Shown piece after piece: positions 13,701 to 37,700 of a DNA stretch of 64,000 nt (the stretch's first letter is position 1; each line of letters starts with the position of its first letter). The DNA is from Amoebophrya sp. A120 (taxonomy: Eukaryota > Protista > Dinoflagellata), in assembly GCA_905178155.1 (NCBI GenBank), contig CAJINV010000017.1:1108722-1172721 (forward strand), written 5' to 3'. Both the position numbers and the translations under genes were made by a program. Below the pieces are notes generated by a model, which was given only the letters and a program-made list of their open reading frames with translations, was not told the origin of the DNA and did not search any database.

Positions 13701-16700
13701 AAGGAGCAGTTTGCAGAGGTAAAACTGCATTATCCTATGTAAAAACGTACCCACCCCATAGTTAAGATGGGGAATCGGCTAGACAAATCCACAAGCTTTG
13801 GCTGTTTCGCATGACAAATTTGGACGCGTAGCGTAGTGCTGTTTGAGCTAGTTCAGCAGCATTACAGATCTAGTCTCTCATGCTGATTGGAGCATGACAA
13901 ATTTCAAAACACCATTAGAAAATGCTCCTCATGGGGCTCCGCATGAGAAACATTTTAAGCATGCAGATTTGCATGGCAACTATGGCGTGGGTACGTTTTT
14001 ACATAGGATATGCATTCCGACGTGTTCTGCGGGCGGGACGGCATCAGTGTCGAGGCCTCCGACGTGATCGCGGCCTCCCTGGGATTCCTGGCCAAAGACG
14101 GCGGAGCAACTTTGGCGAAAAAACAAACGAGCAAAAGTGGCGGAAAAGTGTACAGCGGAATCGTGCAAAGTATAGACAAGTAGAGTTGTTGTGTACGTTT
14201 TTCCTGTATTTATGTATGAATCTCTGTGTTAGTGTTTCGCTTTCGCTTTCGAGGAAACACTGAAACTGATGTCTCTATGTTGTCACAAGCCGCCTGCTGT
14301 ATTAATAAATATTGTAAATCCCGTGCCTGTTGGTCCTGTCAGGAACTCGCCCACCGATGGGGTTATGTTGACCACATCGCTGCTAAAAAAGAATGCGTGC
14401 ATACAGTAATAGATGAACAAGTATGAAGTAGGTGACCACAGGAATGATCTTTTGTCTCTAACTGCCCCTGCCCCCTCTATCTCTCTCAGCCGACCAAGAC
14501 GAGACCACCCCTGCGACAAAGGCGCAGATTATGGAGCAAACCGCTCTCCACAAGGGTTTGTCCCCCGAGGGGGTCCCCTACCGTCTCTCCGACGCGTTTG
14601 ACCGGTTTCCCAACGCGTACGTCGGGCGAAAACGGTTTCAACTCTCGGTGCTCGGCGACTTCAACTACGAGATGGCGGGGCGGATCGAAAACCGGCACGT
14701 GCCGGTCCTACACTACTTCTCGCCCGACTACCAAATGGAGGTCCCCGTGAAGCACCTCAGCTTCCCGCGGCGCGACTACTACAACCACTTCTACTCGCAG
14801 ATGAAGGAAAACCAGCGGTGGAACTTCTTGTTTTCGCGCGTCATCACGCTGGTGTCCATCCTGATGGTGATCTACATGGGCCAGGCGAAGTCCGCGATGA
14901 ACGGCGCACTCGACGCGGGGGCGTCGGAACTCTCCCACCTCACCGAGCACGAGAAAAAAGCGGCGGTAGCGGCCGCCAAGAAGACCGCGGAGACCAGTGC
15001 CGGGTTCGTGCAGTTGGTGGCGCTCTTCGTCGGTACCTTTGTGACGTTCGCGACGGCGGCGTATCCGGACATTATGGAGGCGTACAAGGAGAAGGAGAAA
15101 GAGCGGCTGAACGAACTGAAAGATGCGAACATGAAGGAGTCCGCGAAGATGTGCGGGTTGGTCGCGCAGTACGACAAACTCCTCTGGTTCTCCCAGAAGC
15201 AGCACCGCAACTTCGCGCTGGACGCGGTCATGGACGGGGCAAGTTTCATGTACGCGGCGGAGGTGATGCTGATCCTAATTCTCCTGTTCGGCCACGAGGG
15301 GTCGCCGTTTGTCTTGAAGATCCCGATGGCGCTGGACGCCTGGATGCTGATTCTGGTGACCGGGTACACGCTGGTGAAATTAAACGCGGAATTCCTCGCC
15401 GTGCAGGCGGAGAAGATGAAAAAGCGCATCGCGGAGGCGGATGACCGCATCATTGCGGAATACGAAGCGAAAATGAAGATTTACACCGAGATATCCTGAG
15501 CAAAAATATCCCCTCCACCCTATAGTCAATTTGCTAAATCTGCAACACAAATCTCCAGGAATTTTTGGGAGTTGTGCGTGACAAGTTTCCATCTGCAGTG
15601 TAGTGGTGGTTAGCGAGGGAAGCCGCATGAGAGATCGACTTTGTCATCCTGTTTACGGCATTACAAATGCCAAAAGACGACTAGAAATGCCTCTCATGAT
15701 GGGGATGCGCATTACAAATGTTGAGCTGGGCGCGCTCAGATGGCACCCCGTCCACGATTTTCTCCCGATTTTTTTAGATTTTTTTTTTAAAAAAAAATTT
15801 TGAAGTCGATGTTTGCAGGTGCGAAGTGGCCTGCTTTGAGAGCCTGCTTGTGACTGCCGTCAGTCGTATCTCAGTACTACATCACGCCAACAGTATTTCA
15901 ACTGCACTTGCCCGCGAGTCATCACCTGTTTTTTTGGTTGAGATGAACATATACAATAGCTGCATCAATGCTTAGACATAAAAAGATCGTAGTGCTACTG
16001 TGTTCGCGTTTTTTTTTCAAGGAGTGGTGAGAGATATAGAGCTAGCTAGCACGCAATCCCGTTTTTTTTTTACTGTACGTACACAATTATGTATTTCATC
16101 GTGATCTGCACGTCGCCCGGGTCCGTCGTCTCGCCACTCCGCATCGCCGCGTAGCATTCCCGCCTCCACCGTCAGCTGTCTTTTTACCGCGTCCTCGTTG
16201 CGACTTCGGAACCCGCAAAACCCGATTGTGATTCATGATGTAGAGCGGGTCGATGCGGGGAAAAAAAGCTCAACCTTCCGTAGAAGGGAGGAAAAATCCA
16301 CTTCCATCCGTCGGCAGCAAGCAGCAGATCCAACAGCACCACCGCTGTTTCGTCCGCATCTCGACGTCCACTTTCCAGTCGTCCGCGCCACAACGAAGGA
16401 TGGCGTATTCGCAAATCCGCATTCGCTCCACGCCGCCACCACAGCTCGTCCACGCTGCGATAGGAACCACCTGAGGTTCAAAGTTTGCGAAGGCGGACGG
16501 AAGTTCCACCGTCGTTCCAAATCCGCACTCCAGCCTCCGCTCGTGGCTCCGTAGCAGCCAACTCCGCATCGCGTCGTCGCATCGCGGATCCACATCGCCG
16601 TTCGCAGGCGGAGCAGTCGGGCTCAACGCCGCAATTCCGCTTTCCACATCTCGCTGCCACCGCCGGTAAGTCCACATCGCAGCTCCGCATCCACTCCTGC

Positions 16701-19700
16701 CGCCGCAAATCCGTCTACGCCGCCACGAGAACCACCAAAGGTTCAAGGGAAGCGAAGGTTGTCGTCGCGAAATCCACATCGCAGGTCCACCGCGCGGCTC
16801 CACATCGCAGCTCGCCAACGCCGATCCACATCGCCGCTCCACAGCTCCACATCGCAGATCCACAGTCGCTCGCTCCACCGCAAATCTCCGTTCACGCGGC
16901 GATGGGAACCGATGGGGGTTCAAAAAATTCCAACGCTGCGGTCGCGGCGTCCACATTCGCAAAATCCACAGTCGCATCTCCACATCGCAGCCCCGTCGGC
17001 ACTGAATTCGCGGCGCAGCCCGACGGCCCGATCCGGTGTGCTCGTCAGCACAAAGTTCAAACTACATTCTATTGCTGGCGTGATGTAGTAGCAGGCTATT
17101 TTACAGCGTATGCTAAGGCACGATTATCTTTTTCTATAGTAAACGCTACAGCCTCCCGAATTTCTATCCCGCCCGGGGAGGCGGCTTGCATAAAGCACTG
17201 CACGCATGCAACTGTCACACCGATCGCGCTTTTCTTTACTCTGTATAGTCGCACCGATATTACACATGCGCTTCTGGTTCATCACCGACTTTTCATTTGT
17301 ATGCTGTGATCTACACCGACAACGTTCTCACCGACTTGTGCATTCATGTCTTGCATCGTGTTTCATCAAAGTTTGTCATGGGCAACAAGTAGAACATTAT
17401 GTAGAAAAGATGGAAAAAAGCAGCAACTAGCTGGACGTCGACTCTATAACTAAGCTTTAACTTCCCCCCTCCTTCTGTAGATGGTTCTGCTTGAACTCAA
17501 GTAGAACATTTCTACAAAGGAGGAATTTTACATTTGCGTCAACATCTCACACATCCACCATAACAGAGTTGTTTTTGATATATTATACAGAAAAATTTTA
17601 CATATTATTTTTGATTAACAACTCTGTTCCCGCTCCTATTTACGTGTTGAGCTTTATTTATTATTCCCTCCACCACGTGTGAGACTGTTGGATATGGGCC
17701 TCCTGCCAGTAGGAACAGTGAGTTCTTTACGAAAACATTGAAGCCTACAAATATCATTAAGTCCCCGACAAAATGACTCACTGACTGACTTACTGGTCCA
17801 TACTTTTACTATTATGTACTTGTGGCAAGATGAAACTGTGCATTTTCGAAGTATAAAAAGTGCGAAACAATAAATCAATCAAAACCTAGCAAAAGTTGCT
17901 TGAGTAGTATCCTCTGGTCGATCAAACCGACGGTGATGAAGCAGCAAATATTGGTATGTAAAGTGCGACTATTGCAAACAACTTTCACGGCCAAAATTAT
18001 CCGTCCAACTACTCATCCTCATCATCGGATCCGCCCGCGACCGCGTTGTTGGCAATGGGGGCGTTCACGTTGGCCTGCGCACCACCCGGCACGTGCAACT
18101 GGAGGTTGATTCTGCGTCTCTGGGGCGCGGGCTGATTGGCGTTCGCACCGGCCGGGTCGGCACCGTTCGGGAACTGGCGGGTGATCTCACGCCAGAGCAA
18201 TTGCTTCTGGGCGGGAAAGAGAAAACTGAATGGCACCGTCATACTGTTGTAAGCCTGGGCGGACTCCTGGTACGATCCTGATATTATTTTTGGCATGATG
18301 TTGTAGATGCAGTTTCGCATAGTATTATGCTCATTTTTGCTTTGCATAAACCAATCTGTCTTGCATGCAGTAGGTCGTACTTCTAATTGCTTACAACCAA
18401 GAAATTTTCTGTGCGTATACCGTTCGCCAAAGCGATCCGCAACGGACCCTCCTCCAACTCCTGCATGCGGCGGACGAACTTCTCAAACGTCTCACTCAAC
18501 TTCTCCTGGATGGACGGGTACTCGGTGAACAGGCGCGCTTCCAAATCCTCCTTCATCGCTAACATGGTGTTGGCGCGGTCGGCATGCTCCTGGTGCGCAC
18601 CACCGGTGTAGCAGTTGCACATCTCGCGCATGATCTCGTGCAGGGAACGCCAGCGGTTGCGGGCGGGAAAGCGGATTCCACCCAAGAAGGCGAGCAAGTC
18701 GATCATCTCCTGCTGCGATCCGCGGTTGTCCCAGTCATGCAAGAAGTCAAAAGCGGTGCCAATGGCCAGGATGCGGTTGTCGAGGTCCCGCAGTTGCCCC
18801 TCCACGCGGGTCTGGTCCATGGTCAACAAGTAGCGGCGCAAGGCACCATTGTACTGCTGCGTGAAGTTGCCGGGCAATTTGGTGTAGTACAACGAGGTCG
18901 TGTTGGTGTAGGCGTCGTTCAAACCGATCAAAGTGGTGATGACCGGGTGCGGCTGGGGCAGGTTCATCCACTGGCGGATAGTGTTGACCATCTGACGCAT
19001 CAAGCCCTGGAGATTTGCATTGTAGAAATTACAGACGAAACTATACGACAATAAAGCTGGCACTTCAGTATCAAACTTGTTATGCAGGAAGATTCGTTTT
19101 TCTATCAACCAATAAAGTTCGCTCTCTCGGCTCGTGATAACTCTCAACTCAAGCAGCATGAAAAAGTAGTACCAAATCATGGATCTCCGGCTGGGGGGGC
19201 ACCTCTCCCTGCGCGCGCTTGATCGCTTTCGTCACCATCTCCTCAGCACAACGCGAAGTGTCGAGCGCGCGGGTCAAGTCAGCCTTGCTATGCTATGAAA
19301 AAAACCTTGGAGCAACACACTGTTTTCCTTTCAAAAGGTGCACGACGGGTGCACTCTTCGACTTTTTTATCACTTCTTCTTGCATTTCCTCCACTGTATT
19401 TTGACGTCCTGTTCTCTTGGTACTTTTACAGTGCAGTACTTTCTTTTTTTCAAGTCCCAACCACGCGAACTCATGAGCATAGCATGCAGAGTAAAATCTG
19501 AAAGAGAAAACAGTGCTTTGAGCCAAGGTTTTATCTTTGCATCGTCGTACACGGTGAACTGGGCGTTACCGGTGCGCAAGAAGGTGCCGAGCTGAATCTC
19601 CACCTGGACCAACAGTTCGGCCACGGCGGCAGCGCGGAGCATCTGATGTGGATTTGCAGTATGAAATGCAACATGCGTGCTCATCGTTTCAGGATATGTT

Positions 19701-22700
19701 TCTTATCAATATTGGATGCTTTGTTCGTCATCTGCGCTACACAGTAGTTCTGTCATGCATAGAAGCTAAAAACTTTGCTTCGTCAGTTTCCGACTACGCA
19801 ATACACGACTCAACCGATGAAACGCGCTCATTTTGCAAAAGGCACAACACTATATACGTCCATCGCCTTCTCCCAGAACAACTCCTGGAGCGTCTGTCCG
19901 CCGTTGACGGGGGCACCCTGCAGCAAATGGGTGGAGATGGCGTCTTCCAGCAAAGACACCTGCTGCAGCTCGATCGCATTGCTGATCATCATCATGTTCT
20001 CGCGGATCTCGGGCATGTTGTTGTTGCCGGACACGAACGCGCGGGCCTGCGCGTACGCCCTGTTTTTTATTGTCAGAATGATGTATCTCATGAAATTACA
20101 GTTGCGTTTTTCTGTGGCACTGAAGCATGATTTCAATGGACCGACGTAAGATTACGATGTGAACAGCATCACTTTATCAACAAAAACACACAAATATACC
20201 AGTCGCGAAACTGGACCAAGGTCCGGGGCTGGCGGGCCGCGGTCCGCTGGAAGGCACCACCCTGAAACAAAGCGATGATTCCCGCGCGCTCCACTTCATC
20301 ACGGGCTTCTGGGTGGCGCATTAAACCGCACAGACGATCGCACACGCCGAGAGCACGTAACCCGTTGGCCTCATCGGTCAGGGAGGCAAATCTCCCCTGG
20401 AGATGGACCTGAGTCGTGGTTCTTGGCCATGATTTCCACTTCAAATGGCAGTTTTGTCATGCAGAAATCCATACTTCACAAAAGCATCATGCGATTGTCA
20501 TGTCGGTCAAGTTTGTGATGCACAAGTTCCAAAATTGATGTAGTACTGCCACACGACGTTCTTGATCGAGCGTAGTATGATTGAAATCGGCCCTTCCCAA
20601 ACGGGCCGCTTCGCGGGCGATGATGTCGGTGCGCGTGAAGAGCACGATCTGACGCACCGCCGAGGGCAACGCGGCCATGGACCTGGCGATGACGGCTTCG
20701 TGGGCCAGTTCGAGGTTACCGATCTGGGCGTCAGTCAGGGTGGAAAGGTACTGGACGCGACTCAAAAATTATGCAAGTTGCAACTCTAGCTCAGCACCTC
20801 AGCCGCGTCATGCATGCCTGGCTACTTCAAAAATGCAAAAGCGCATGACAAACTCATATGATCAGATATGCTATTTCACAAGCATTAAGCACGTAGTCGC
20901 ACAGTTGGTCGAGACCAATTTGCATCATAGTTAGCATGACAAAGCAGTAGTGTAAGGTGCTGAGCTAGATATTGCTACCATAACAGACGGGTCCGCATGC
21001 GACCTTCCTGACGCCAGAGGGCACCCATGGCAGCGACATGATTCGCGTCTTGCTGTAGTGGTAATTTTTTTGAATTTACAGTATGTCTTTTTCACATCAA
21101 CAAGCGTCTGCTCATCCATGATAAAGGCATTCTATGCATGACAAGTTCAAAAATGTGTACCGGCAGAGCTGCGTTCTGCAGAAACTCCTGGGCGACCTCT
21201 CCAGTGGGGTGACGGGCCAATCTGTTTGCCATCTTGACACGCTTTTTTTTTCAAAGGAAGAACTCTCCACAAAGGAAGAACTCAAGAAGTAGTTGGCTAC
21301 GGGTTTTGTGTTGATGAAGATGATGAAAAGCAAGTATTAGATGGCGCGCGTCAGAAATTCAAAATTGTAAAATGAAAGTATCCAAACAACATCAAGATCA
21401 TCAAAGCAGCCGCCTTTTTTTCTTCACAATTACCACTGTCAAAGTGAGATCTCAGATCTATCCCATAACTTGAACTACAACAACAACAGTCATCTCATTC
21501 TAGGCACTGCAATGCGCTGCTTCATCTCTCACAAAAAAAAACAAAACAAAGAGCCGACTTATTTGATGATGTCAGCACGTTTTTACCAAGTACTATGTGT
21601 GCTGAAGCTTACGACACGACAACGCCATCATCGACGCCGAACTCACACAAAAAAAAACCTTGCTTTACTTCTGTATTGTGCGCGCAATTCTACCTCTATG
21701 ACATACTTGCATGCTGTGCTATATCAACTCGAGAAGTGCCTTCTTTTTTCATGTATGTTCCACTACTTGCATGTGCAGTCTGTCATGCTTCTTGTATGTC
21801 AATCCAGCGTACTCAATTTATGACATGCACTTCGAAGTCTACTAATTTGTCATGCTGTGTATCACAAAGCAGCAGTACTATGCTGCTTCAACTTCCCATG
21901 AAGAGTTGCGCTATGTCCCTATGTGTATGCATGATGCTACTACTGTGTGGTTTTACTGTCACGCACTACGTCCATCTACAGGTACACTGTTTGTATTACA
22001 AGCTATGTACTTTCACACGAAGTAAGGTCGTTCTACGCAGTTAAGATTGTACAAAGTTGTCAACGCTTCTGGCTTATATATAGGTCTTTTGCGCGATGCT
22101 AAAGTCTACAGCTGTTCCTATGTAATATTCAATTTGTGCACTATATTCTACTACTTGCAATGAAACTACTGTCAGGTACACCACTATTCTACACGGCTGG
22201 CCATCGGTAACTCGGACAAGAAGGCGAAGGTCATGGCGCAGATGGTCAACGCGTCATGGTGGTGATCTAGGGCTCGCAGGTATCCGTTCGCCCATGGTGA
22301 CCATCTCCGTTGCCGCATGACCGCGAGGGTGAAGTAGTCGTGGTGGGCCAAAGTTCGATGACCAGCCGTGAAGTTACTATATACTACTTTACTAAGCTTT
22401 TCTTGTTCTAGTAGTGCTCTTTTTGACACCTTCTACGCATTACAAATTGACGCTTTCTTGTCTACTTAAAGCTACATTTTCTGACATCCTTTAAAAATGA
22501 CGATTTTTCCTCACAAAAAGTGATCACTTTTCCTGCTCAAAAGTGAACTCGAAAAATGAGACGTTTTGCAAATTTGACCTCGAAAAAAAAGTCTTCTGAT
22601 TTTCTAGAAGGTGAACTCGAAAAAGTCTCGCGATAATGGAGAATATAAGTAGGACATGAGTCTTTTTTCTAGACTTTTTTTTTGACTATGCAGATGCAAA

Positions 22701-25700
22701 AGGTGACTTCGAGGAGGAAAAGCGAGAGACTTTTTTTTGTGCTCAAAAGTGATCATTTTTGAGCTCAAAAAGTGACCACTTTTTGTGAGGAATAATTGAG
22801 ATTTCCTTTGAGAGATGAATTGTACAATAAATCAATGCTTTTTGAACCTGAAACTGTGCAGAATATAAGTGTGTTCAACTACAACTTGAGGTGCCCGACC
22901 ACCTTCACTGGGCCGGCACTTGGGACGCCGATTCTGCGAGCACGTCATGCTGTTTACCCGCACCTGCAGCAGCCATCTTTGGCTGCTTTTTGGTCTTGGC
23001 CTTGATCCTCTGCTTCTCCACAAGGACATCGGCGATTTCCAGGTATTCTGCGTCGATCTTCTGGAAATCCAACCACGACGTAGTCGACTTTCCGGGCGAG
23101 AGGTACTTGTAGGTCTGGTCAGAAATGTGCATCAGAGCGTCGAACTCCTTCTGCCTGGTAGCGTCCTTTCCAGCACGTTCGGCGGCAAAAGCACGGATCT
23201 CCGAGGTGTAGGCGGCGTACTGGGACTTCAAAACCTCCAAATCATCTTCGGTGGACTGCGGTTCGTACTTGCTGTTGGAGCTGGCTTTTTCGCAGATGAA
23301 ACGGCACATCACGGCCCACCCGTTTAGGAGGCACTCGACCCAAAGGGGTCCCTCTTTCTCGCCAAACACCATGCTCCTCATGGGCCTCTTCGTCGACTGG
23401 CACTTCATGTCCAGGTAGGGGTGGACGAGGAGCTTTTTCATGTTGTTCGCCAGCTTGGTGTCCACGCACTTCATGCTCAGTCGGACAGCATCTCTTCCGG
23501 TTCTCTTGCGGTCAAACACCGTCGACGCTTCGATGCATTTCCACCCTTCGACTCTCGTTGCGAAGAGACGATTAGCAACCTTCTGTCGCTCCAGCTGATG
23601 CAGTGCGTATTCCTTGCTCGAGAGGTGCATCTTCGCCGTCGCAGAAAGGGCAGTCATGCCCTGCGTTTCCACCTGCGTTGAAGCCTGCGTTTGCGGTTCC
23701 TCCACGACGATCTTGTTCGTCTTTCGCCACGTTTCCGCATGGACGTCATCCGACTGTAGTGGCATTGCTACCATCTTGTTGTCGTCCAGAACCCAGATCT
23801 TGTCGGTCGATTTCGGCGCGGTCAAAGCCAGCATCGTAGGCTGCAGAAACTTCTCCAAGTTGTCCTGCATTTGGGCTTTCTCGCTATTGCTAGCGGAGGC
23901 CCACCCTTCCCTGAGCACCTTGTCCTCCTCCTTTCCCGCCTTGGTCCGCTGCTGCCGGTACGACAGGTTGATCCGTTCTCCACAGAACAAGCACGCTTTG
24001 CTTCTGCCGTCCTTTACGTCGACTTTCATCGTGTACATCGGCCCGAGTGTATCCCGTGAAAAGCATTGAAGCTGCAAGCCAAGCATTACTACTATGCATT
24101 AGATATTTGCATGAAATATGTAAAGGTTTTGCGCACAAGAAATCAAATTTTGTAATGCAAAAATCAACATTTGTGATGCTTGTCATGTAGCTTCAATGTT
24201 TTGGTTGCATACATCGTATCCAGGTCGTATTCGGTGCCGCGGTCGTCGGAGTACAAGTTTATCCAGGTCATTCGCATCCTGCACTGCCACCACTCCTTTC
24301 CCGGATCTTTCTGCAGTGCTAATTGCACCGCTTTGAACGATGATGGAGACAGCACCACGTCTGAAATGAGGAACGTGTGCATTTCCCCCGACGGACGGTG
24401 CTTGTACTGCGTTATGAAGAATGGCGACAATAACGACGACACGTCGTGCACCCCCTGCAGTACCGGCATCGCGATGTTGTCGTCTTCCCCAACTTCGTCT
24501 GCGTCTTCTACCAGCAGTTCGTCGTCGACTATCGATCGCAACAATCTTATCCTGCGAAGAAGGCCAAAGTTTTTGTATGCAAGCATGCGAAGCTTTCTGT
24601 TTCTTCGCAGGATAAGATTGTTGCGTTTCGATAGCATCATCATCCGGCTCGGCGAGGTTCAGGTGAGCTAGATCACCGGGTTCGATTCCAGCAGCCTTCT
24701 TCTCTTGTCGCAGCGATTTCAGCTTACCGCGCTTCGCCCGGATGAAACGCGATATCAGCACAGCAGAAGCCGGTTTAACTTTCGCCCGCACCGTCACCTC
24801 CGGCGGCTTTTCCACTGTAATCAGCTGGTTGGTTCTGTTGCACATAGCGGGTGCAAGTTTTCGATAGTCGCCGTCTTTTGTCAAGTACTTTTGCAGCACT
24901 CGTTCCTGCACCCCTTCGTAGTACAGTTTCTCGCGGTTCACGACAGCAAATTCCCGGACTTCTTCCTCCTCTTCTTCGCTTTCTTCGGCATCCTCATACT
25001 TCAGCTCCGCCGCTAGTAGCTCCTTCTTCTTATCCATTTCCGCTGCGATGATGGTGTATTTCGCTTTTTCGTCGTCGTCCTTCCAGGAATTCAATTTGTG
25101 ACACTTTTCTAGCACGTCCGCCGCTGTCATCTTCACGTCTTCTTCACCGTCCTCCCACTGGTCTTCCCGTTTCGCATCTATCGGTCGTGTGCAGGCGTAG
25201 TGCCGTTTCGCTGCGGGTTCGCCGGTATCGTCGTCTTCTTGATCCGGTAGCAAGTACGGCCGGCATTCCTCTTCCACCACCGAAGCCATGTTTTGCCAGT
25301 CCTTTCTGTTTAGCTGCGCGTCCGGTCGTATGCGTTGAAAATATGTAAAATAGCCTCCTGCAAGTAAAAATCAAAACTGAAAAAGCACTGCAGTTTGCAT
25401 GCAAAAAGTTACGTTCTCATCATGTCGTTGCACAGATTCGTCATGCCTTATGTAGTATGTGGTGCCTTTTCAGAAAAAAACCTGTAATGCAAGAAAGCTA
25501 TGCTACACATTTTCACTTCATAACTCCGGGGATACTCTTGGTTCCAGTCTTGCACCGCTTCGCATGCCACTTGTAACGTCCACCCCGTTTTTCGCAGTTT
25601 TTGGTGCTGCGGTTGGCAACTTCGAGGCATTCGGTGAGGGATTTCATCTTCGCTTCGCGGATGTTCTGCGGCAGATTCCGCATATACCGCTGTACAGAGT

Positions 25701-28700
25701 GAAGCGATATCGACCCGGGATCCCCTTGCGTGTACACGTCGAACTTGCACTTGTCCAACTGCTCCATGGCCTTCTTCAGGTCGACCCGCGCGTTCCCCAA
25801 CCATGTCTCATGCAGATCGCACTGCCCGTCGCGATAGAGAAGAATACAGCGGGAGATGATGAGGACGTGTTGTGCATTTATCCGCGCCAGCTCTATCTGT
25901 TTTGCATTTTAATTCTAAATATGCATTTCAACAGTCCTCGTGTCATGCTGGAAAATGTGCATGACAAAATGGAAAGGTTGTTTTATTCTATACCAGTTCA
26001 AGTTGCGCATCCGAAAGCGTCACACTTCCGATCCCGATGCCGCACATCAAAAACGCCAGATCATCCAGCACTGCCTGTTTGTCGCTGAAGTAGTTGTACG
26101 TGCTGACGAGATCCTCCCGAAAGGTTTGCTTCAATGCCGCCCGTCCTTTTTCCCGAACATTGCTCCGCAGCGTGCTACCATTATAACGCTCGATGGGGCG
26201 TATCAAGTGAAGCAAAAACCAACTCGTCACCAGGAAGAGGAATTGCGTTCCTGATTTTGTTATGAGTTGAAGATGTAAGTTTGTCATGCTGGATTGGCAA
26301 AAATGCATGATTTTTGCATGAGAAAAAATGTGCATTTGCATGCTTTTCTACCATGCACTTTGTGGAACCGTCGATGCATGGCAATACTATGTATTTGTAG
26401 CACCTGTCTTGTTGCGCATGTCCACCGTAAAACCATGCTCCAAGATTTTCTCTTGGCCGAAAGAAATTCTTTCGCCCAGTCCCGTAAAAATTCTTCCTAG
26501 GAAGAACGCGGTCGCCAGGGAGAGCTGCGTCAGACACGACATCACCGTCAGCCATCGTGTCCAGACCGGACATTTGAAGCCGCGGTACAGACAATGCAGC
26601 GCTCGCATGCATTGATGCTTGCTGTTTCGCGGGATGACGAGCAACTTCTGCCGCACACTGCAGTCCCGGAAGAAGTCTTTTTTTTTCGTGTCCATCGGTA
26701 GGCGGTCCAAGAAAGCACACAGCTTCTCGTCTTTGGGTGGTTTCTCTCCTTTGTCCCACGGAGCGAGCCATTGCTCCACCTGGTCGAGGCCGTTGTGGAT
26801 CTTCTCCTGCAGCAGCTTGATGCTGTGAACCTGGATGATAAATATAGAAAACAATGTTGATGCGCATAATATTTCATTTGTCATGCGGAACGTCATAAAA
26901 TTTGTCATGCAGAAACGAAGCAAATACTGCGTGGCTATACCTGTAACCAAAGCCTTTTTTGCCAACCAACCGGGTCGAGGTTCATCGTCCCCAGGTATAG
27001 CTCCGCAACCTGCTTCGTAACAAGGGCGGTTTGATGGACTTTACAGCGTTGCGTCCAAAGTACAACGTCGGACAAGTACTTGGACGCCATGAACAGGCCC
27101 CCGACATAAAACAATGTCGGGATTGTACTACCGCCGGAGTCCGTAACCGGCGACCATACTTTGATGGTGTTCTGCGACCAGTTACTGAAAAAAACTTCCG
27201 GCGAGTGATACGTCCATAACTGGTCTGCCACCTCAAAAGCTTCACTGTACCCCCGGAATGCTGATTTTTGGTTTTGTTGTCGTGGTCCAAAATCGTAGCT
27301 CGATGGGTACATCACAGTATGTGATGGCAGGAAGACGGAGCCCATTTTGTCGATGTTGCCACAGCAAAAAGTTATTGCCACCATGCTGATCATGACGTGG
27401 GCAAACACTTTTATTTTTCCGCGAATGCTATTCTCGAATAGCATGTTTTGGCACGTAGTGCCATCTATTTCGACTCGATAATGTACGAGGGAAAGCCTGC
27501 TGCTGTCGTTGAAGTAGGTCTGGCTGAACTCGAAACACGTCTCGACCAGCAGTGCGGCTAGTTTCCACAACTTCCTCGGAGCGAGGTACGACTGCGAGTT
27601 GAAAAAGGCCGCGCGCTCCTCCTGTTTTTCGTTCTGTTTCGCCGCCGCATCTTCTTCTTGCTTTTTTGTCTTCGGCGCCTGGTTCTTCTTCACCATTTTC
27701 CTACTCCGTGTTGTTACGCCGAAAAACTGGTGCGGAAACACAAACGACGGCGGAAGAACAGGACCGCGCCAGTAGATGCGGATGCAGTTGTTATTATATA
27801 GCTTTACTTAGATGGGATTGCGTGCTAGCAAATTAATTATTTTATCTTAGGTATGTGGGTATTGCTTAGTTTAAAAAAAAAACCTGCCTGCTAGTAGGAG
27901 AATAGAATATGCATTTTGTATTTCCAAAAAAAAATACTTGCGTTTCCCCGTTCTCGTGCTGGCACTCTTCCGCAGCCCTTCCCTCCTGATAGCGCAGCCA
28001 AAAAATCTCTCAGCCTTCTCTTCTCACACAAAAAAGCAGCTCGTTTGGTATTTCGAAAAAAACGTCGCTTCTTGCATGACAAAAAAATTACCGAACACTG
28101 CCTGCAATTATTGCAGATGTAGTTGCAGTTCGCAGCCGCTTCTCGGCGCAAGATGTTACTCGCAGCGACACTGCGAGCGCTTTTGTTTTGTGTGTATCTC
28201 CCACCGCCCGGTCGCGCTACCACTTTCCTACCGCTGCCTCTTCTACCCGCGCCGACTGCTTGCCCGGTTCTATTCTGCAGAGGAAAGATCTTGTTGCTAT
28301 TCACGCGAACGCGAACAGGTGCAGAATCGTTTCCCTTTTTTACAAAATAGCCGACTATACACAAGCCCGCTACAGTTAGAAAGGAAAATCGATAAGCTCT
28401 TTTGCCGTACTACATGATCGTCGTGCTATGCATTTCGAAATGCATAGCACGATGATCATCGACAAAAGACTTTTCGTTTTTCTCTTCAGCCTTCGAAGTA
28501 GCAGCTCTGTAAAAGTCCTCCGCTGTGTGCAGCTGTATCTCAAAACCGAATACACGAGGGTCGACGGTATTATTTGGCTGCGAAAGTTCGCAGCCAAATA
28601 ATCGAGTAACAGCTGCACGTTGATCAGTACTATTTTATTTGCGCCGCACATCCGCGTATGGATTGTTGTGTGTCGTGATTACTCATCGACACACAAGAAT

Positions 28701-31700
28701 CCAAACCTGGGCGCTATGCTACGAAAATAGTACTGATCGCATCGCGGAAAAAAAACTTGTCGCCGAGAATCGAACCGGCGATCGCAAAAAGGGTGAAAAG
28801 GGACTGAGACAAACAACTCGGCCCCTTACCCGCTCGGCCAAACGGCCGAGCGGACTGCATCGGTCATCGACCTCGGAGACCCTATCACAGCCCAATACGG
28901 GCTGTGTACGTTGTCGACATTTTTGATCATGCGTTTCCGCATGATAAACTGCTTTGAGCGACACGACGACAGCCAAGTCGTCTGTCGCGATAGAAGTATA
29001 GTGCCGGGTTTCGAACCCGACCTCGCGAAGGGTGAAAAGGGACTGAGACAAACAACTCGGCCCCTTAACCGCTCGGCCAAACGGCCGAGCGGACTGCATC
29101 GGTCATCGACCGCGGAGACCCTATCACAGCCCAAAACGGGCTGTGTACATTGTCGACAAATTTGAAAATGCGTTTCCGCATGATAAACTGCTTAGAGCGA
29201 AACGACGACAGACAAGTCGTATGTCGCGATAGAAGTATAGAGACGGGTTTCGAACCCGACGCTATCGACGGCCAAAAGGAACTGACGGAAGCAGCTAGAT
29301 CGCTATTCCGCATGGTATGGTGGAGGATCGACAAGTCGAATGACCACCATACCATGCGGAATAGCATCGATGCAGCATACCATGCAGTTTCGACCAAAAA
29401 AATGAGATGAGAAGGCGAAACCGCTATAGAAATGCACCTAACGACGTGAATAGCAACTTTGTTTCCAATGCAAAGTAGACCGTTTTTTTCCAAAATTTTT
29501 CAAAAAAAAAAAATCTCAAAAAATTGAGAGAAAATCAGATGACTTTTTTCATCTGAGGCGCCCAGCTCAACAAATGTTCCTGCCATCGCGCATTTGCATG
29601 ACAAACTCTGGGGAGGTGGGGGCGTTTTTAGACAGGATACGAGAAGAAGAAGCAGGTCATGGACTTCTTCGACCTAAAGAAGTGGATCGAGGGCTTCAAG
29701 AAAAAGAAGGCCGCGTACCAGGACAAGATTGACGCGATTCAGGACCGCATAACCCAGGCCTTCGCGACGGCGGAGAAACTCCGCCAGATGGCGGAGGCGC
29801 GCGCAAAGGCGGCGGAGGAGGCCGAGAAGAAGAAGCTGGAGCAGGGTTTGGTCGAGGAGGGGGAAACGGAGGACGAAATGGAGACGGTGTTCATCGGGAA
29901 AGTGAACGAATCCCCGGCGAAGAAGCCGCTCCTCTCCACGACCGCCGGCGCGGGCGACGTGGAGATGACAGCGTTCGGGTCTGACAAACCCCTCCCCAGC
30001 GCACGCAGACAAAAATTCGACTCCGTGGAGAGCTCAAATTCCGCCCCTCCGCTGACCGCTAGAACCGTGGAAAAACTCGCGGCGAGCGAGAAGTCGAAGT
30101 GGGACGACATGCTGGTGAAGTCTGCTGGCGATGTCGGCGCCGCACCTACCGCCGATTCAGTAGACAGCATCACCGCGCCCACGAAAAAGTCCGAGGTGGT
30201 GGTGATTCCGGGCGCGAAAGCACTGGTCGAGGTGCAGGCCGTCACCGGGTTGTCGCAGCAGGGCCCGTTCGTTACGCTCGGGAAGCTGGTCCGCGCGATT
30301 TTGAAAACGATCACCTACCCCTTCGTGGTTCTGCTCAGCCGGGAACAGTTGTCCGCCCTGATCAAATCCGTCGCGGCGGTGTTCGGAACCCTGGGCGTCA
30401 TGTACGCGCTATTCAGCACCGATTCGACGTTTTCCATGGTGTTCATCCTGGCGATCACCGGGGTCGTCGCAAAAGCAATCTTCGACGCGGGCGCGCGCGC
30501 GGCCACGCCCAGCGAGGCGGAGAAGGAGGAGCAGAAGCTGCAGCAAAAAGCGAAAGCGCTGCAGGAGCGAGCGCAACTGGAGGCGAAGAAGGTAACCTCC
30601 ATCCACACCAAATCGGTCCTGAAGGACGACGGGTTAAACGCGAAAGACCACGTGGTGTCCGCGTTGGAAGCGTGCGAGGCGGTGGACGCGGCCTGGGCCA
30701 AGGGCGAGCACACCTTCGTGAAAATGCCGCCGGCGATGATAAAAACCCAGAAGCGGGTGGTGCCCGACGTGAACCGCGGCTGGTTTGAACTGAAATTGAA
30801 CCACTTCGCGGCGGGAAAGCAGCCGGACGCGCAGGAGATCGGAACCAGCCTGAACAGCGACGACATGTTCACCATGAAGGATTACGTCTTTGACGTGTGC
30901 GACATCATCGTGGACACGTTAGGTTTGCGATTGCCTTCGGACGTAAAGCCGGTCAGACACACCAAGACGCTCACGAAAAAACTGCTGCAGGTACTAGAAT
31001 TGATTCACTGCTAGTATCGGATGAAATTGTTGAATGATCAGCATGATGGTAACAGGATCACTGCGGGGGCAAACCTGGTCCTGAAATGATGATGCTATGC
31101 GAATGCAACAAAAATTCGCCAGAAAAAAAATAAAAAGATAAACTCAAACACAGGTTAACAAGCCTCTCGGAACTACCCGTGACCTTGTTCAGTCCTTTCC
31201 GATCCAGATTTCCGTCGAGACGCTCCGGGGCGAAGCGGAGAAGAACAACAAGCAAACGCAGGTCGCGTGCACTCTATCAACTGTAAAAATGTCTGGGTCT
31301 GGAAGAATTCATGTTTGTCATGCTTGTCTGGCATGGCTCTTAAATCTGTCATGCACGTTACCCAAGAGCTCTGCTTTTCTGTGATGCAGGAGCGCAGTTT
31401 GTCATGCAGAATAGGCAACACCTAGGAGCTCAGAAACTTGTCATGCTGAGCCAGCATCTGTAGCTTCATCATGAGACGCCACCCAGCATCACAAGTTTCC
31501 AGACCCAGACATTTTTACTTTTGATACACCCTGCAGATTGTGAATTTCGTGGGGAAGGGGCAAGCGGACCGGGCCGATAACGACAGCTACTTGACTATCA
31601 TTTGTAAAAACGTCCCCACCCCAGAGTTGTGATGCAGATTTGCAATGACAGGAACATTTGTAATGCGCATCGACATGAGAGGCGTTTCTAGTCGAGTTTT

Positions 31701-34700
31701 GGCATTTGTAATGCTGTAACCAGGATGAGCAGGTAGATTTGTGGTGCGTTTTTCCTTGCTAGCCTGCACTATACTAGGGACTGCATCTTGTGATGCGTGA
31801 GTCCCAAAACTTCTGGGTTTGTGTTGCAAAATTTCCATCTTGACTCTGCTGTGGGGACGTTTTTACAAATGATATTGACCCTGACCGACCAGAAAACGAT
31901 CGGCGCGAAGAAGGGCGCGGGCGTGAACATTGACACGTACAAGGTCGGCGACGACATTATTTTCAACGACTTGAAGAAGGGCGACCTGTTCGAAATCGTC
32001 CAGGACGAAGAGGGGGAGGAAGTGACGCGCATCCCGAAGTTGGCCGACCAGGGCGCCTGGCAGAAGGCCACGGACGGACAGAAGCTCACGAGCGCCGACA
32101 TCGTCTACGAAGACCAGGAGCCGTTTGAAATCGCCGAAGACGGCGGCCCGGATTCGCCAACGGGAAGTACTCCAGGCACCGAAATAAACGCCCTCGTACG
32201 CAATTGCCGCTGTCTAGCACTACAGGCGGACCCTCCCCCATACATCACTTCAGTCAAACGTCAGGCGGGCTCTAGGGCCTTCGTGGTCGTAGTGCCTGGG
32301 AGATTCACACTCGCTCCGGAGCCGGCGCCACGCCCTGGGCGACAAAGCAAAAGCGCTTTGCCGACGGCTCGCCCCGAAAATAACTTGTGCCGGGGCGCAG
32401 TGTCGCAATGATTATTTTTCGCGCATTCTCCAGGGGTGAGAAACGCCCCGCGTCGGCTTTTGGATTCGGCGCCCCCCACATTGAAGTTTCGCGCCTTTTC
32501 GTGCTATGCGCTGCCAGGCCAGGTGCGGCCACGCCGGCGACTTCTCTGCCGTGGTGCATAAGTAATAAATAATCTGCCTTCTTTTGCGTACGAGCGTTGG
32601 CGAGGCGATTCCGCACGCGGGCCGCTGCTGCAGCGCGGCCTGCCCGGCTGACCTCTTTGTGCGTGGGATTCTTTCTCGACTTGGTCTTGCACGGCCATAC
32701 TAGCGAGGGGTAATGGAATCAGGCGCGTTGTTTGTTCGTGGGCTGGAACCGCGGGCGCTTCGTCTTGCGACGGCGCCGCCTTCGTGGTAATTGTGCAATC
32801 CCTTCCACCGTTGGTTTTCAACGCATAAGCATGATCAGCGTGCGTGCCGATCGTTGTTTTGCGTGTTTTCCCCCTCTTGCGCGGGCGGTGCAGCAAAGGA
32901 AGTCTCCAAAGCCCAAGCCGGCGGAACGCGGGTAGGCCTGCACCGACCCCACCGCCTGCGTTGCGTAGTGCGATGGGGAGAGCCCGAAGCGCTCACACTT
33001 TTCGCAGAGAATCGCCTTAGGAAGCGCGCTGGCCTGGCAGGAAAGATGGAAGCGCGGGGGCGCCGCTTGTTCCATCTTGCTTGCCTTGAAAAAAGGCTCG
33101 GGGATGTTTGGTTCTTCCCTGGCTTTGTTGTCGTTGCCCTTTCTTTCTGCGGCCGGGGCATTGGTAGGTTGCAAAAAAGCGCAGGCATGGCCCAGTTGTC
33201 CGGAAAGGAGGCAAACCGTTCACCATTGCCCCGCATCGATCGGGCGGGCCAGGCACCGCGGGCGTTGCCAGCCTCTCACGGTTGGACGGCGGGGCGGGGC
33301 GTAGCTCTCTATGGGCGTTGGCATTCATGTTTCATCTTGTTTGTCTTGCTAGACAGGTCGTGTAGCTGCTTATTCCGTACGAGGGCGTTTATTTCGGTAT
33401 ATCGAGTACCATGCGCGGCGGCGGGGCCCGGTTTGAAATCGCGGAGGACGGCGGCCCGGATTCGCCAATAGGAAGTACCATCCGCGGCGGGGCCGGCACG
33501 ATGATGAACAACTACGTGGAGGGCCAACACAGCGCCGCGCCAAAGTCCCCGCTGCGGGGCAAGAATTCGACCGATTCGCTCGACGGCGCGGTCGCGATGG
33601 AGATTTCGAAATGGCGGAAGCCGGCGCTGCTGGAGCTGCGGCCGGACGACTTGGAGAAATCAAACAGCAGGGCGACGATCTACGAAATTGAGAACACCTA
33701 CGGGAACTACGCGCACGTGCCGAGGGAGCTCCGCGGCACGCCGCTGCCGCAGAAGCTGGTGCGGTTCAAGGTGCGGAACGACGACGGCGAGAAATTCTCC
33801 TTTGCGCCCGTGAAGCCCGGGGCGGGGCAGGGGCTGTTGTGCAAGCAGGAGGGGGAGCTGAGTTTGGAGGAGCAGAAAGCGAGGAAGTGCGCGGATTGGT
33901 TCAACGCAGTGGACGGCTGGTTCGAAGATTTGGGCGCGAGCAGCAACCTGCGGTCCAACGTGCACGCGGTCTTCGACGAGCTGTTTTGGGGCAAGGACAC
34001 CATGACGCAGGGCGGCCGACCGGCGGACGTGAACAGTGAGCGGAAGAAGTTCAAGAAGGGCGAGCGCAAAGACCTCCCGAACCAGCAGAAGGGGCTTTTG
34101 GCGCGCGTGTTGGAGCGGAAGGACGCGGGGTTGACGGTCAAGGAGTATTTTGACTATTTGATGTACGGCGCAGAGGACGATAACGAGTGGCCGGGCTTCA
34201 TCTACTGGTTCCGCTTCAAGCCGAAGGGCGAGCAGGAAGTGGAGCAATTGAACAAAAACCCGAAATTTCGCTACGGTGCGGTCGTGCCGCCCGGCCCGAT
34301 CGTGGGGGCGCTGGCCAAGCCGGCGCTGACGCCGCAGGTGCTCCACGTGGTGCTCACCGACGCGGATCTGAGGGCCCCGGGCGACGTGGTCGACGCCTGG
34401 CAGCCGCAGCGGGGAGAGCCCCACACCGCGGAGATGTTCAAGCTGGACAAGGAGGGCTACAGTCGCGGCGTCGTGGGTCTGCTGAAGCTGCTCCCCGACA
34501 AGTTGCAGTTTGAACAGCCGGTGGGCGACGGCGAGGTGGATGCGGAAACGCTGGCCGACACCTTGAATTTCGATTTTTCCGACACCTACGCAATGTTCCC
34601 GGTGGTCAAGGACGTTTTCAAGATCAACCCCAAGATTATCCAAGACAGCATTTTCATATACATCACACAGCCCACTACCACTTTGATCGCGTTGCTGCAA

Positions 34701-37700
34701 AGTGACATTTTACAACATGCAGCAGCAATTGTATAAAGCAGAGTCCTGCTCTGATTCAAAAGAACTTGCCGAAGACCAAGTGTGTAGTTAACTGTGATGG
34801 TGATAGATGATTCTTTCCTCCATAGCCACCGGGGTGGAGGAACTGACAGTGACCGGAAAAACGTTGTACTTGCAGATGAAGGGCGGCGACATCATCGCGT
34901 TCGGGATGGACCAGAAGAATATCAACTGCAAATATGTCTGGGTCTGGACGAGGGATGCGAACTTGTGATGCTGCGTCTGGATTCTGCAAAAATCTGTATT
35001 ACATGAAGAGCAAAAGAGGTCCACTTTTTGCCATTGCGAGAGGGTATTCGTATTTCGCATGCGGTATAGAAGGCATCAGAAATCCCTCACAAAATCTGTG
35101 ATGCTAGGGCATGCATCACAGACATCAGGACTCATGATGCAAAGTGTGCATCACAAGCCTTGCATCCTTCCAGACCCAGGCATTATATTTGCGATGCATA
35201 AAGAAGATCGAGATGTGGGCGGACTTGATCGAGAAGTACCAGATGTCGACGCCGCAGCAGTTTATCCTCGGGTACGACGGCAACGTGTCCGAACACCCGG
35301 AAGACCCAAATCTGCAGATTCGGGAGGGCAAGCAGGGCTACCAGAAGTTCTACCTGAAATCGAACTGCCCGGGCGTGGGGTACGTGCCGAAGTCGCGGTA
35401 CTGCGGGTCCTGGAAAAACCACAAGTACCACGGCGACGGGATGTTCTACAAGCTCCAGGTCGCGGAGAAGTGTCCGCACGTGGCGCTGTACCCCGGTTCA
35501 AACAACCCGTTGGGGCACAAGATGAAGGACGTGTTCCTGCTGAACGACCGCGAGCACCTGCACCACTCCAAGGCAAACTACGAGCGGCAGGTGATTATGT
35601 ACGACGGGAACTTCGAGAACGGGCTGCGGTGCGGCAAGGGCATGGCGTTTTTTCCCATTCCGACCGCGAAGGGAAAGCTCCTGTACCGGTTCAACGGGGT
35701 GTGGTGCAAGGACCGACCGGTGTTGGGGGAACTGATGTACGTGTCCGGCCCGATCGAGCAGGGCTCGCTACCGCAAGAAATAATGGGGTTGCAGTTTGAG
35801 ACGATTGATGCTGTAACTTCAGCTCACACAATGAATTTACTCTGCAGATGAAAACTTGCAAACCACCAAAGATCATCTGATCATCAAGGAAATAAAAACG
35901 TATGAAACCGCGCTCCTATGTTGCATATTCGGCACGGTAGAACTTGCCTGTGTTGCAGCTTGCAACAGGAGCAACGCAATGTGTGACTGTAACACCTCCT
36001 TTTCCTCCGCATACCCACCCACGATGAAGTACTACTTTGGCACGGTGGTCCCCTTGAACGCGGGGAAGAAGACCGGGGACGGCAAGGCGGAGGAATTTTT
36101 GAAAACGCGGCTGATGGACATATCGCCCTTCGAAGTGTACGCCGCCGCCTGCCTGTCCTGCGGGTCGAACGGCATGTCCCCCTCCCAGGTGCTGTACCAG
36201 CTGAAGAAGGACTACGCCGCGCTGATCTCCATCAAGTCCAAGAAGCTCGAAAAGTTGGCGGAAATGACGGAGCCGCTGAACGCAAAAATCGAGGAGACCA
36301 GGAGAACCTACGGCTACTACGACGAGCCCCTGAGCGACTTCGATACCTACATCCTGTCGCGCTGCCTGGAGCCGTTGAAAAAAATGCCGAACATCAAGAA
36401 TCTGATGGAACCAGATGGCAAGGACTACTTCCGCGACGGGCTCAACATCAACGATTACAAGTTCACGCAAAAGCTCAACGTGCGGGATTTATCCAAGGAG
36501 AATAAAGTGTGTCAGTGTAACTAACTTGTGTATTCACTTTGAAGGAACAGGCAGTAAAAATTTCTCATGCATGATCAGCATGACAGACGCAAACGCAATC
36601 GCCTCCTGCACGTAGTTGCGCATCACAGAGCTACACTGGCAGTCTTGTTTTCGTGGATACGATTTTCACTGCGACGAGTACATCCGAGACGACCTGGACG
36701 TTTTGTACAAAAAATGGTTCAAATATGAGTGCTATGCATCACAAAAACATCGCACTTGGCTGTAGAATGCATTTTTACAAATTTCATTTTTTTCAAATGA
36801 TAGACAGCGACTCAGTGTCAGCGAAATATGCAAAAATTATCTTCTGTCATGCAATTTCAAATGAAATTCAATTTCTAGCTCTACACTTGTTGCGATATGC
36901 AGTCCCTTATTTCCTTGGGATAAGTGCTATGATGACGAAGATCAGAACAGCAAGCAGTCCGGAACGATCTACGCCGTGGACGCGGATGACAAGACCAAGT
37001 GGGATTCGTACAAAAAAGGGCTGGCCTCCCTGGCGGAGGACTGGAACAAGTTCCAAAAAGAAATTGCTTTCGAGGACGCCATTATGTTGATGGAGATGGG
37101 CCGCAAGAAAAAGCCCAAGTGGATGAGCAGCCTGCAACAGAAGTCCTTCTGTGAGGACTTGTTGCTCCAGTGCCTCCCGGCAAAGGAGGTCGCTCCGGCC
37201 TGGTATTCGCAAGTCTCGGGATACGAAAACAAAAAATTGCCACGCGGCACGAGAAGGCTGTTGTCGGTAAAAAAATATTTGCATGTGCATGGAGTACGCT
37301 ACTTAATTCAAACGCATTTACCACCTACTTTACTTCATCGCCTCCGACTAGGTACAAATTGAAGCTTCGAAAAAAAAATTTTTTGGGGCAATCCACCTAT
37401 TTATCGTGTAGCACTTTTCGTTTTCATACGGCAGAGGTTTACGCGGAGGAGCACGCCGAGATGAAGGAGGTCTTCCGATCCCTGAGTCGCAAGCTTTCCG
37501 CAATTTTCCCCACCGCACCAGCTTTCAGTGAGGAGCTCTGGGAAAAGATGCCCAAGGTTTCCAAAACGGTCACAGAGAAGAAATATGCTTAGCAAGAGTG
37601 TCGCATTGCTCGCTACATTATAGATCATGACCTTTCACTTATACGTGACGCAGCACCACAATAAATTTCATTTCATTTCCTTCGGAAAATCATGAAAAAA

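Follow-up and report, generated by a model that had tools for sequence, protein, structure and literature searches.

A 13.85-kb terminal-inverted-repeat element with a predicted hAT-like transposase, nested in an introner of Amoebophrya sp. A120

We analyzed a 64,000-nucleotide stretch of the dinoflagellate Amoebophrya sp. A120 (assembly GCA_905178155.1, contig CAJINV010000017.1, positions 1,108,722 to 1,172,721 of the forward strand), referred to below as the window and numbered from its first letter. Within it, an introner lying in a host gene is itself interrupted by a 13.85-kb element with terminal inverted repeats (TIRs), which contains two predicted genes, A and B, a short coding-like stretch, and several repeated or palindromic noncoding segments (Table 1). 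This is likely a large TIR element of an undescribed lineage that carries a hAT-like transposase and is nested in the introner.

Two copies of ACAAATGT flank the element, which spans 13,848 bp (15722-29569) when the duplication is read as 8 bp. At the element termini, 12 perfectly paired bases form part of a longer, imperfect inverted repeat (84 aligned bases, 78.6%), in agreement with the TIRs of about 80 bp reported in a preliminary description of this DNA, and the terminal 11-mer has only two sites in the window, one at each end. The surrounding host introner (15492-29639) begins with TATCCTG, finishes with CAGGATA, and has a 5-bp direct repeat, CGAGA. Without the element it is ~290 bp long and matches a related introner (31596-31874); in a comparison with the reverse complement of 31591-31884, 222 of 307 columns match, and a single ACAAATGT is present. 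Excising the whole introner fuses the two adjacent host exons in frame (flanking open reading frames [ORFs] of 345 and 460 amino acids; only these two exons were joined). Amoebophrya introners have inverted ends and 3- to 5-nt direct repeats (PMC7789003), and the host repeat shows this anatomy, with inverted ends, a direct repeat of 5 nt where it meets the exons, and membership in a repeated family. Contig depth in DNA run X1 is also very high at introners. All genes found inside the element are on the minus strand, antisense to the host gene, as had been described. Together, the ends, the ACAAATGT repeat, its single occurrence in the related introner, and the in-frame host join bear out the earlier proposal that a transposon is nested in an introner, with the related introner representing the unoccupied target.

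The introners at 13731-14010, 31596-31874, and 37818-38079 are 262 to 280 bp long; their ends read TATC..GATA, and their 5-bp direct repeats are exact. This TA-ended family with a 5-bp duplication recalls hAT5.

Table 1. Features of the element and its host introner (window coordinates)
Feature	Coordinates	Strand	Remarks
Left 5-bp direct repeat of host introner	15487..15491	+	CGAGA
Host introner, left part	15492..15713		Begins TATCCTG; aligns to introner 31596-31874
ACAAATGT, left copy	15714..15721	+	8-bp duplication, or 6 bp if element begins at 15721
Left TIR, imperfect	15722..15804	+	84 columns, 78.6%; 12 perfect bases
GC-rich, internally repeated segment	16139..16990	+	Seven exact CCACATCGC in 16590-16980; no convincing gene; little codon-position bias
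Gene B (predicted)	18009..21232	-	8 exons, 586 amino acids; open frame; 6 of 7 introns GT-AG; GC3 0.80
58-codon coding-like stretch, possible 5' exon of gene B	22193..22366	-	GC3 0.72; in-frame 960-nt GT-AG intron
Palindromic AT-rich segment between genes A and B	22495..22804
Gene A (predicted)	22905..27696	-	7 exons, 1329 amino acids; hAT-like DDE transposase with long C-terminal extension
Gene A, predicted intron 5	24531..24630	-	Near-perfect hairpin, non-canonical ends, introner-like
Long hairpin	28403..28471
239-bp tandem duplication (94%)	28747..29260	-	tRNA-like boxes
Long hairpin	29300..29370
Right TIR	29488..29569	-
ACAAATGT, right copy	29570..29577	+
Host introner, right part	29578..29639		Finishes CAGGATA
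Right 5-bp direct repeat of host introner	29640..29644	+	CGAGA, then host exon in frame
Related unoccupied introner (empty target)	31596..31874	-

The reading frame of gene A is open across its seven predicted exons; four of the introns are GT-AG, and two are non-canonical with short direct repeats. A phmmer search of exon 1 against 1.84 billion representative sequences gave nine matches, comprising two proteins from Amoebophrya AT5.2, three unnamed proteins from A25, and four unnamed environmental proteins. Spliced gene A aligns collinearly with one A25 protein, P0007, over 1134 columns (32%, E 0.0). For another homologue, P0005, the alignment covers 554 columns (25%) and, in addition, a block at the C terminus. 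These two alignments show that the long tail encoded by the 3' half of gene A is part of the same protein; the conserved tail comprises ~700 amino acids. When 10 sequences were aligned, the first Asp (D78) was kept in all seven rows that reach it, TDSGGS (D186) was found in eight of 10 rows (one row begins later, and one is gapped), and C218 and H221, which form a CxxH motif, were invariant in every row. WTRW (R344-W345) and E582 are conserved in the three long proteins (3/3). The motif order D78, D186, C218xxH221, R344-W345, E582 is that of hAT transposases, and gene A would thus combine the DDE triad, CxxH, and W that mark hAT, with the Glu resting on three sequences. The spacing of these motifs is like that in Hermes. 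CxxH and W are marks common to hAT and MULE, and Hermes has H268 and W319 (PMC5225508). We also found that six short homologues (P0001, P0003, P0004, P0006, P0008, and P0009) resemble the family only up to the alignment column that corresponds to the end of exon 1 (window position 26941), which suggests that diverged members of the gene A lineage may have one intron position in common.

A fold model of exon 1 built from the 10 sequences had a mean predicted local distance difference test (pLDDT) score of 58, and a single-sequence fold had a pLDDT of 34. The 10-sequence model runs strand-strand-strand-helix-strand-helix-strand, with D78 and D186 at strand ends and CxxH starting a helix; this order fits an RNase H core, in a model that is weak at a mean pLDDT of 58. 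Foldseek found no match to it at an E value of ≤0.001 (Hermes ranked 49th, E 0.51), and a VIA fold search with this weak model gave a best Z of 7.0, to unrelated proteins, with transposases in none of 50 rows. In the Atlas, residues 80-640 of P0005 were closest to unnamed eukaryotic clusters (0.91-0.93), followed by four named clusters at 0.78-0.80, three of them with hAT-related families, which we treat as a lead only; exon 1 of gene A had no usable match there. A word-based protein search with exon 1 was blank, and its profile version returned one match, already known. Such blanks carry little weight, because the word-based exon 1 search also missed P0005. Sequence searches of the PDB returned nothing significant, Pfam nothing in 15 pieces of the element, and searches of viral contigs no relatives of gene A or gene B. 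Judged by its motifs, gene A probably works like a hAT transposase, as first described; membership in hAT falls short of proof because the fold test gave a weak model.

Gene B has a GC content at third codon positions (GC3) of 0.80 to 0.82, compared with 0.79 to 0.84 in host exons and 0.68 in gene A. No homologue of gene B was found with the weak searches applied to it, the sensitive phmmer search having been confined to exon 1 of gene A, and a word-based protein search with a gene B exon had no match. Gene B may be either captured cargo or a built-in accessory gene. A third candidate gene in 16273-17061 was rejected, since its 13-bp repeats occur in all frames and its codon bias is low. We therefore modelled two genes (seven exons in A and eight in B) and the 58-codon stretch, not the three or more spliced genes announced in the preliminary description, and of its orphan cargo genes, one, perhaps with an extra 5' exon, is retained.

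The noncoding parts of the element contain further repeats. Beyond the seven copies of CCACATCGC clustered near the left end, two more exact copies are found elsewhere in the 64 kb, and a role of the clustered 9-mers in end binding is possible. On the minus strand of 16465-16960, three diverged units give similar short peptides (FEP-x-VP-x-AA), two of them ending in stops; these units are either a decayed repeat gene or a plain DNA repeat. Near the right end, the 239-bp tandem duplication contains A-box/B-box promoter pairs at 29079/29017 and 28840/28776, with a third B-box at 29256. These two pairs are the only ones in the window, with 0.07 expected per element-sized random sequence. ARAGORN called no tRNA genes, and the seven Rfam matches were all under the gathering score; since the boxes are uncalled by these programs and T runs are present, we read them as probable degenerate tRNA-derived pieces. 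A sigma-70 scan was at chance level. The structured RNA-like modules proposed earlier correspond to tRNA-like promoter boxes and hairpins of no evident function.

Two observations concern the host gene region downstream of the element. A 48-nt exon piece is duplicated (32123-32204 and 33372-33478) on either side of 1.2 kb of GC-rich sequence whose inverted ends measure 38 nt, which resembles another insertion-like intron of the host gene. A downstream exon (35138-35848) has a weak match to MORN repeats (E 3.5e-05), which is the sole hint on this region; the exon may belong to another gene.

The length of the target-site duplication (TSD) is ambiguous in the sequence itself. The ends of ACAAATGT are self-complementary, so duplications of 8, 6, 4, or 2 bp are all compatible, as had been pointed out, and the element would begin with TG, TT, GT, or TG, respectively. 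We estimated the length from where X1 contigs end, on the assumption that the contig graph was built from 31-base words. At the right junction, the spanning contig starts at 29541, which implies that some other sequence is common up to 29570 and differs at 29571; this speaks against the 4- and 2-bp readings. On the left, the start of an interior contig at 15720 and the first difference of a variant contig, at 15750, indicate that the two bases preceding the 8-bp terminus recur in one or two other sequences, a situation expected more often under 6 bp than under 8 bp. We had also considered the left contig end as an exclusion of the 2-bp reading and dropped this argument, because the variant contig differing at 15750 accounts for the break. 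From these contig ends, a 6-bp duplication is somewhat favored, 8 bp is possible and clearly less probable, and other lengths are unlikely; an 8-bp TSD is not established, and the contig ends suit 6 bp at least equally well. hAT families with 5-, 6-, and 7-bp TSDs are known (PMC12730594).

Contigs from run X1 also bear on whether the element exists elsewhere. Mean depth was 58.2 in 19 interior bins and 30.3 in four host-exon bins, figures that are summed contig depths and not copy numbers. Six interior contigs had 54 differences in 11,545 bases (0.47%), compared with none in 3,422 bases of two flank contigs, and variants were present in every interior contig, gene B included. About double depth and variants confined to the interior make it likely that other copies exist, and suggest roughly two or more nearly identical copies that extend along the full element, gene B included. 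Of 40 variants listed, the 38 inside the element were used, and there are 134 further ones. Two frame-breaking variants occur in other X1 contigs: 4 nt inserted in gene A exon 1 (window position 27591) and 16 nt deleted from gene B exon 5 (19586). The variant pattern fits neutral decay of copies, with no sign of selection on gene B between them. One X1 contig with a depth of 40.5 has one base gained and one lost in the left TIR (15745-15754), and may come from a related element or a derivative with an almost identical end. The right junction is spanned by one X1 contig without differences, with 29 of its bases inside the TIR and 37 through the end of the repeat; the left junction is spanned by none of the eight contig pieces listed. 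A search for the TIR pattern in metagenome contigs gave four matches, none extending into TIR-like sequence, as expected by chance. In RNA runs X4 to X6, reads were found at short repeat patches only, with none on host exons, gene A, or gene B; because even host exons lack reads, these runs are uninformative about expression or splicing.

We conclude, with a probability of roughly 0.7, that a 13.85-kb TIR element was inserted into the introner by cut-and-paste transposition through its own predicted hAT-like DDE transposase, with gene B riding along. In this mechanism, the gene A transposase would bind the element ends, excise the element, and insert it at a target cut with a 6- or 8-bp stagger, and gene B, a permanent second gene of the element, would be carried along. 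Splicing would still take the 14,148-nt intron out of the host transcript and the insertion would be tolerated, since the paired ends of the introner are intact and the intron is presumably still removable. Other copies would decay, and the copy in the window would be one that retains both open frames.

Several results weigh against this interpretation. No family in Pfam, NCBIfam, or PHROGs passes for gene A or its nine homologues. Gene A lacks a BED finger, in that there is no zf-BED match, the first Asp is already at residue 78, and the homologues begin alike. The third catalytic residue, E582, is based on a three-sequence alignment. hAT termini are usually 5'-CA/TA, and the element does not start in this way under any of the four readings of its ends. 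All splice models of genes A and B are predicted, and the non-canonical introns (two in A and one in B) were set by frame and homology. In addition to the limit on summed depth given above, X1 may be the source sample of the assembly, and none of the listed contigs connects the two genes in another copy, 22755-22871 being a gap. Ten of the 11 listed variants in gene B or its possible 5' exon alter an amino acid, and the 16-nt deletion in exon 5 also belongs here.

Other explanations draw on the same data. Rather than being a divergent hAT, gene A could stand apart at superfamily rank among the CxxH transposases (hAT, MuDR, P, Kolobok, and Dada), with gene B as a built-in accessory protein. The lack of a profile match to any hAT family, the ranking of unnamed eukaryotic clusters above the named hAT ones in the Atlas, the missing BED finger, the long conserved tail, and the unusual termini are all in keeping with this idea, as is the typically two-gene structure of Kolobok (PMC9587614). 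However, motif order and spacing, TRW, and the long insertion before the Glu are as in Hermes, TSDs of 5, 6, and 7 bp occur within hAT, and rapid protein evolution in Amoebophrya (PMC7789003) can account for absent profile matches, so we consider a separate lineage unlikely.

Less probable still is a one-off composite, in which an ancestor of this copy gained gene B and the tRNA-like pieces and is now passively duplicated with no conserved cargo. The host-like GC3 of gene B and its neutral-looking variants, one of them frame-breaking, would fit such a history, but variants and raised depth extend across the whole interior, both frames are open over seven and eight exons, and the clean duplication requires transposase action on these ends once gene B was inside. 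This history differs from insertion by the element's own transposase mainly in the age of the gene B link. It is very improbable that the assembly joined an unrelated two-gene region into an introner. In favor of such an artefact, none of the listed contigs reaches across the left junction, and X1 could be the same sample from which the assembly was made. Against it, the inverted ends match, a site present once in the related introner is exactly duplicated, a transposase-like gene lies inside, and an unbroken contig crosses the right junction.

Returning to the hAT-like reading, we compared the element with known systems. It resembles hAT elements (Hermes and Buster; hAT5, hAT6, and hAT7) in the D, D, CxxH, W, E order, the long insertion before E, and a short perfect terminal repeat; a duplication of 6 or 8 bp would also be among the lengths known for hAT (PMC12730594). 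Buster examples are 2.5 to 3.0 kb long, with a single 597- to 677-amino-acid ORF and a BED domain (PMC12637253), in contrast to the 13.85 kb, 1329 amino acids, long conserved tail, second gene, and absence of BED and Pfam matches found here. ToxhAT of wheat-pathogenic fungi is 14.3 kb long, with 74-bp TIRs; it holds eight genes and another transposon nested inside, and no TSD could be identified for it (PMC6737239). Compared by description only, it shares a length of about 14 kb, a similar TIR length, and a hAT-like transposase with extra genes; the A120 element differs in its clean duplication, two genes, and intron location. Oversized TIR transposons with additional ORFs also occur in other superfamilies, as in the enlarged CACTA elements of the red alga Chondrus crispus (16 to 20 kb, four to five ORFs) and the Pack-MULEs, which are non-autonomous and mostly 1 to 2 kb (PMC6431247). 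Amoebophrya introners as described carry no transposase and were analyzed at 40 to 1000 bp (PMC7789003), unlike this host introner, which has grown to 14.1 kb through a nested element with different ends and a different duplication.

Among the remaining superfamilies, the C/DxxH motif and a second accessory gene recall Kolobok (PMC9587614), and the TTAA duplication and RR..YY ends of Kolobok are both absent. PlavakaA (CMCT) has TGT..ACA termini, a 2-bp duplication, and different protein motifs (PMC12730594). A 2-bp reading of our element would match these ends, but the right contig end speaks against it, and gene A has CxxH in place of the C(2)C and H(3-4)H motifs, as judged from alignments read by eye. 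MuDR/MULE elements have G..C termini (GG/CC is also given), long near-identical TIRs, and 8- to 10-bp TSDs (or 8 to 9 bp). Gene A shares CxxH and W with them, whereas the element begins with TG in the 8-bp reading and has TIRs only 79% alike over 84 bases. Dada elements have no TIRs and target small-RNA genes, unlike the TIRs and introner target seen here.

Farhat et al. (2021) report that A25 has two putative transposases and that A120 has none, and take the low count to rule out general transposase-driven introner movement (PMC7789003). The text of their supplement has no match for "transposase" or for the A25 gene identifiers GSA25T00017317001 and GSA25T00004409001, and the passages of the paper are likewise silent on whether P0005 and P0007 are the two A25 transposases. 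The Kv genome paper reports no DNA transposons (PMC12005148). Gozashti et al. class some Amoebophrya introners as TIR elements and most introners as non-autonomous (PMC12130899). One Amoebophrya row is present among 60 of the 63 "hAT" places in supplement file 8 of that paper; this row (553) lists introner family fam135, whose termini are hAT5/hAT6-like and whose automated coordinates extend to about 18.8 kb. We found no description of the element in the literature as covered by titles and abstract openings, a comparison that leaves Repbase and supplement files 13 and 14 of PMC12130899 outside. Large gene-carrying TIR elements are already known, and the new part is the transposase lineage, which appears undescribed. 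The early suggestion of an unusually large composite, possibly of an undescribed family, therefore survives as a large two-gene element whose transposase lineage is likely undescribed; its size and extra genes have precedents.

A further proposal, which we hold to be doubtful, is that large CxxH DDE transposases of a lineage so far undescribed and invisible to Pfam, gene A among them, occur across Amoebophrya in mobile two-gene elements, and that these transposases are the missing enzymes mobilizing TIR introners. The ends of this element differ from those of the window introners, and for that reason it is not shown to mobilize them. An intron-split, intact-looking transposase lineage that profiles have missed, with homologues in A25 and AT5.2, nevertheless reopens the question of transposase-driven introner movement and offers a concrete query for it. 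The locus would also show that a hairpin-ended, non-canonical intron withstands growth from 0.3 to 14 kb, providing a natural test of its splicing.

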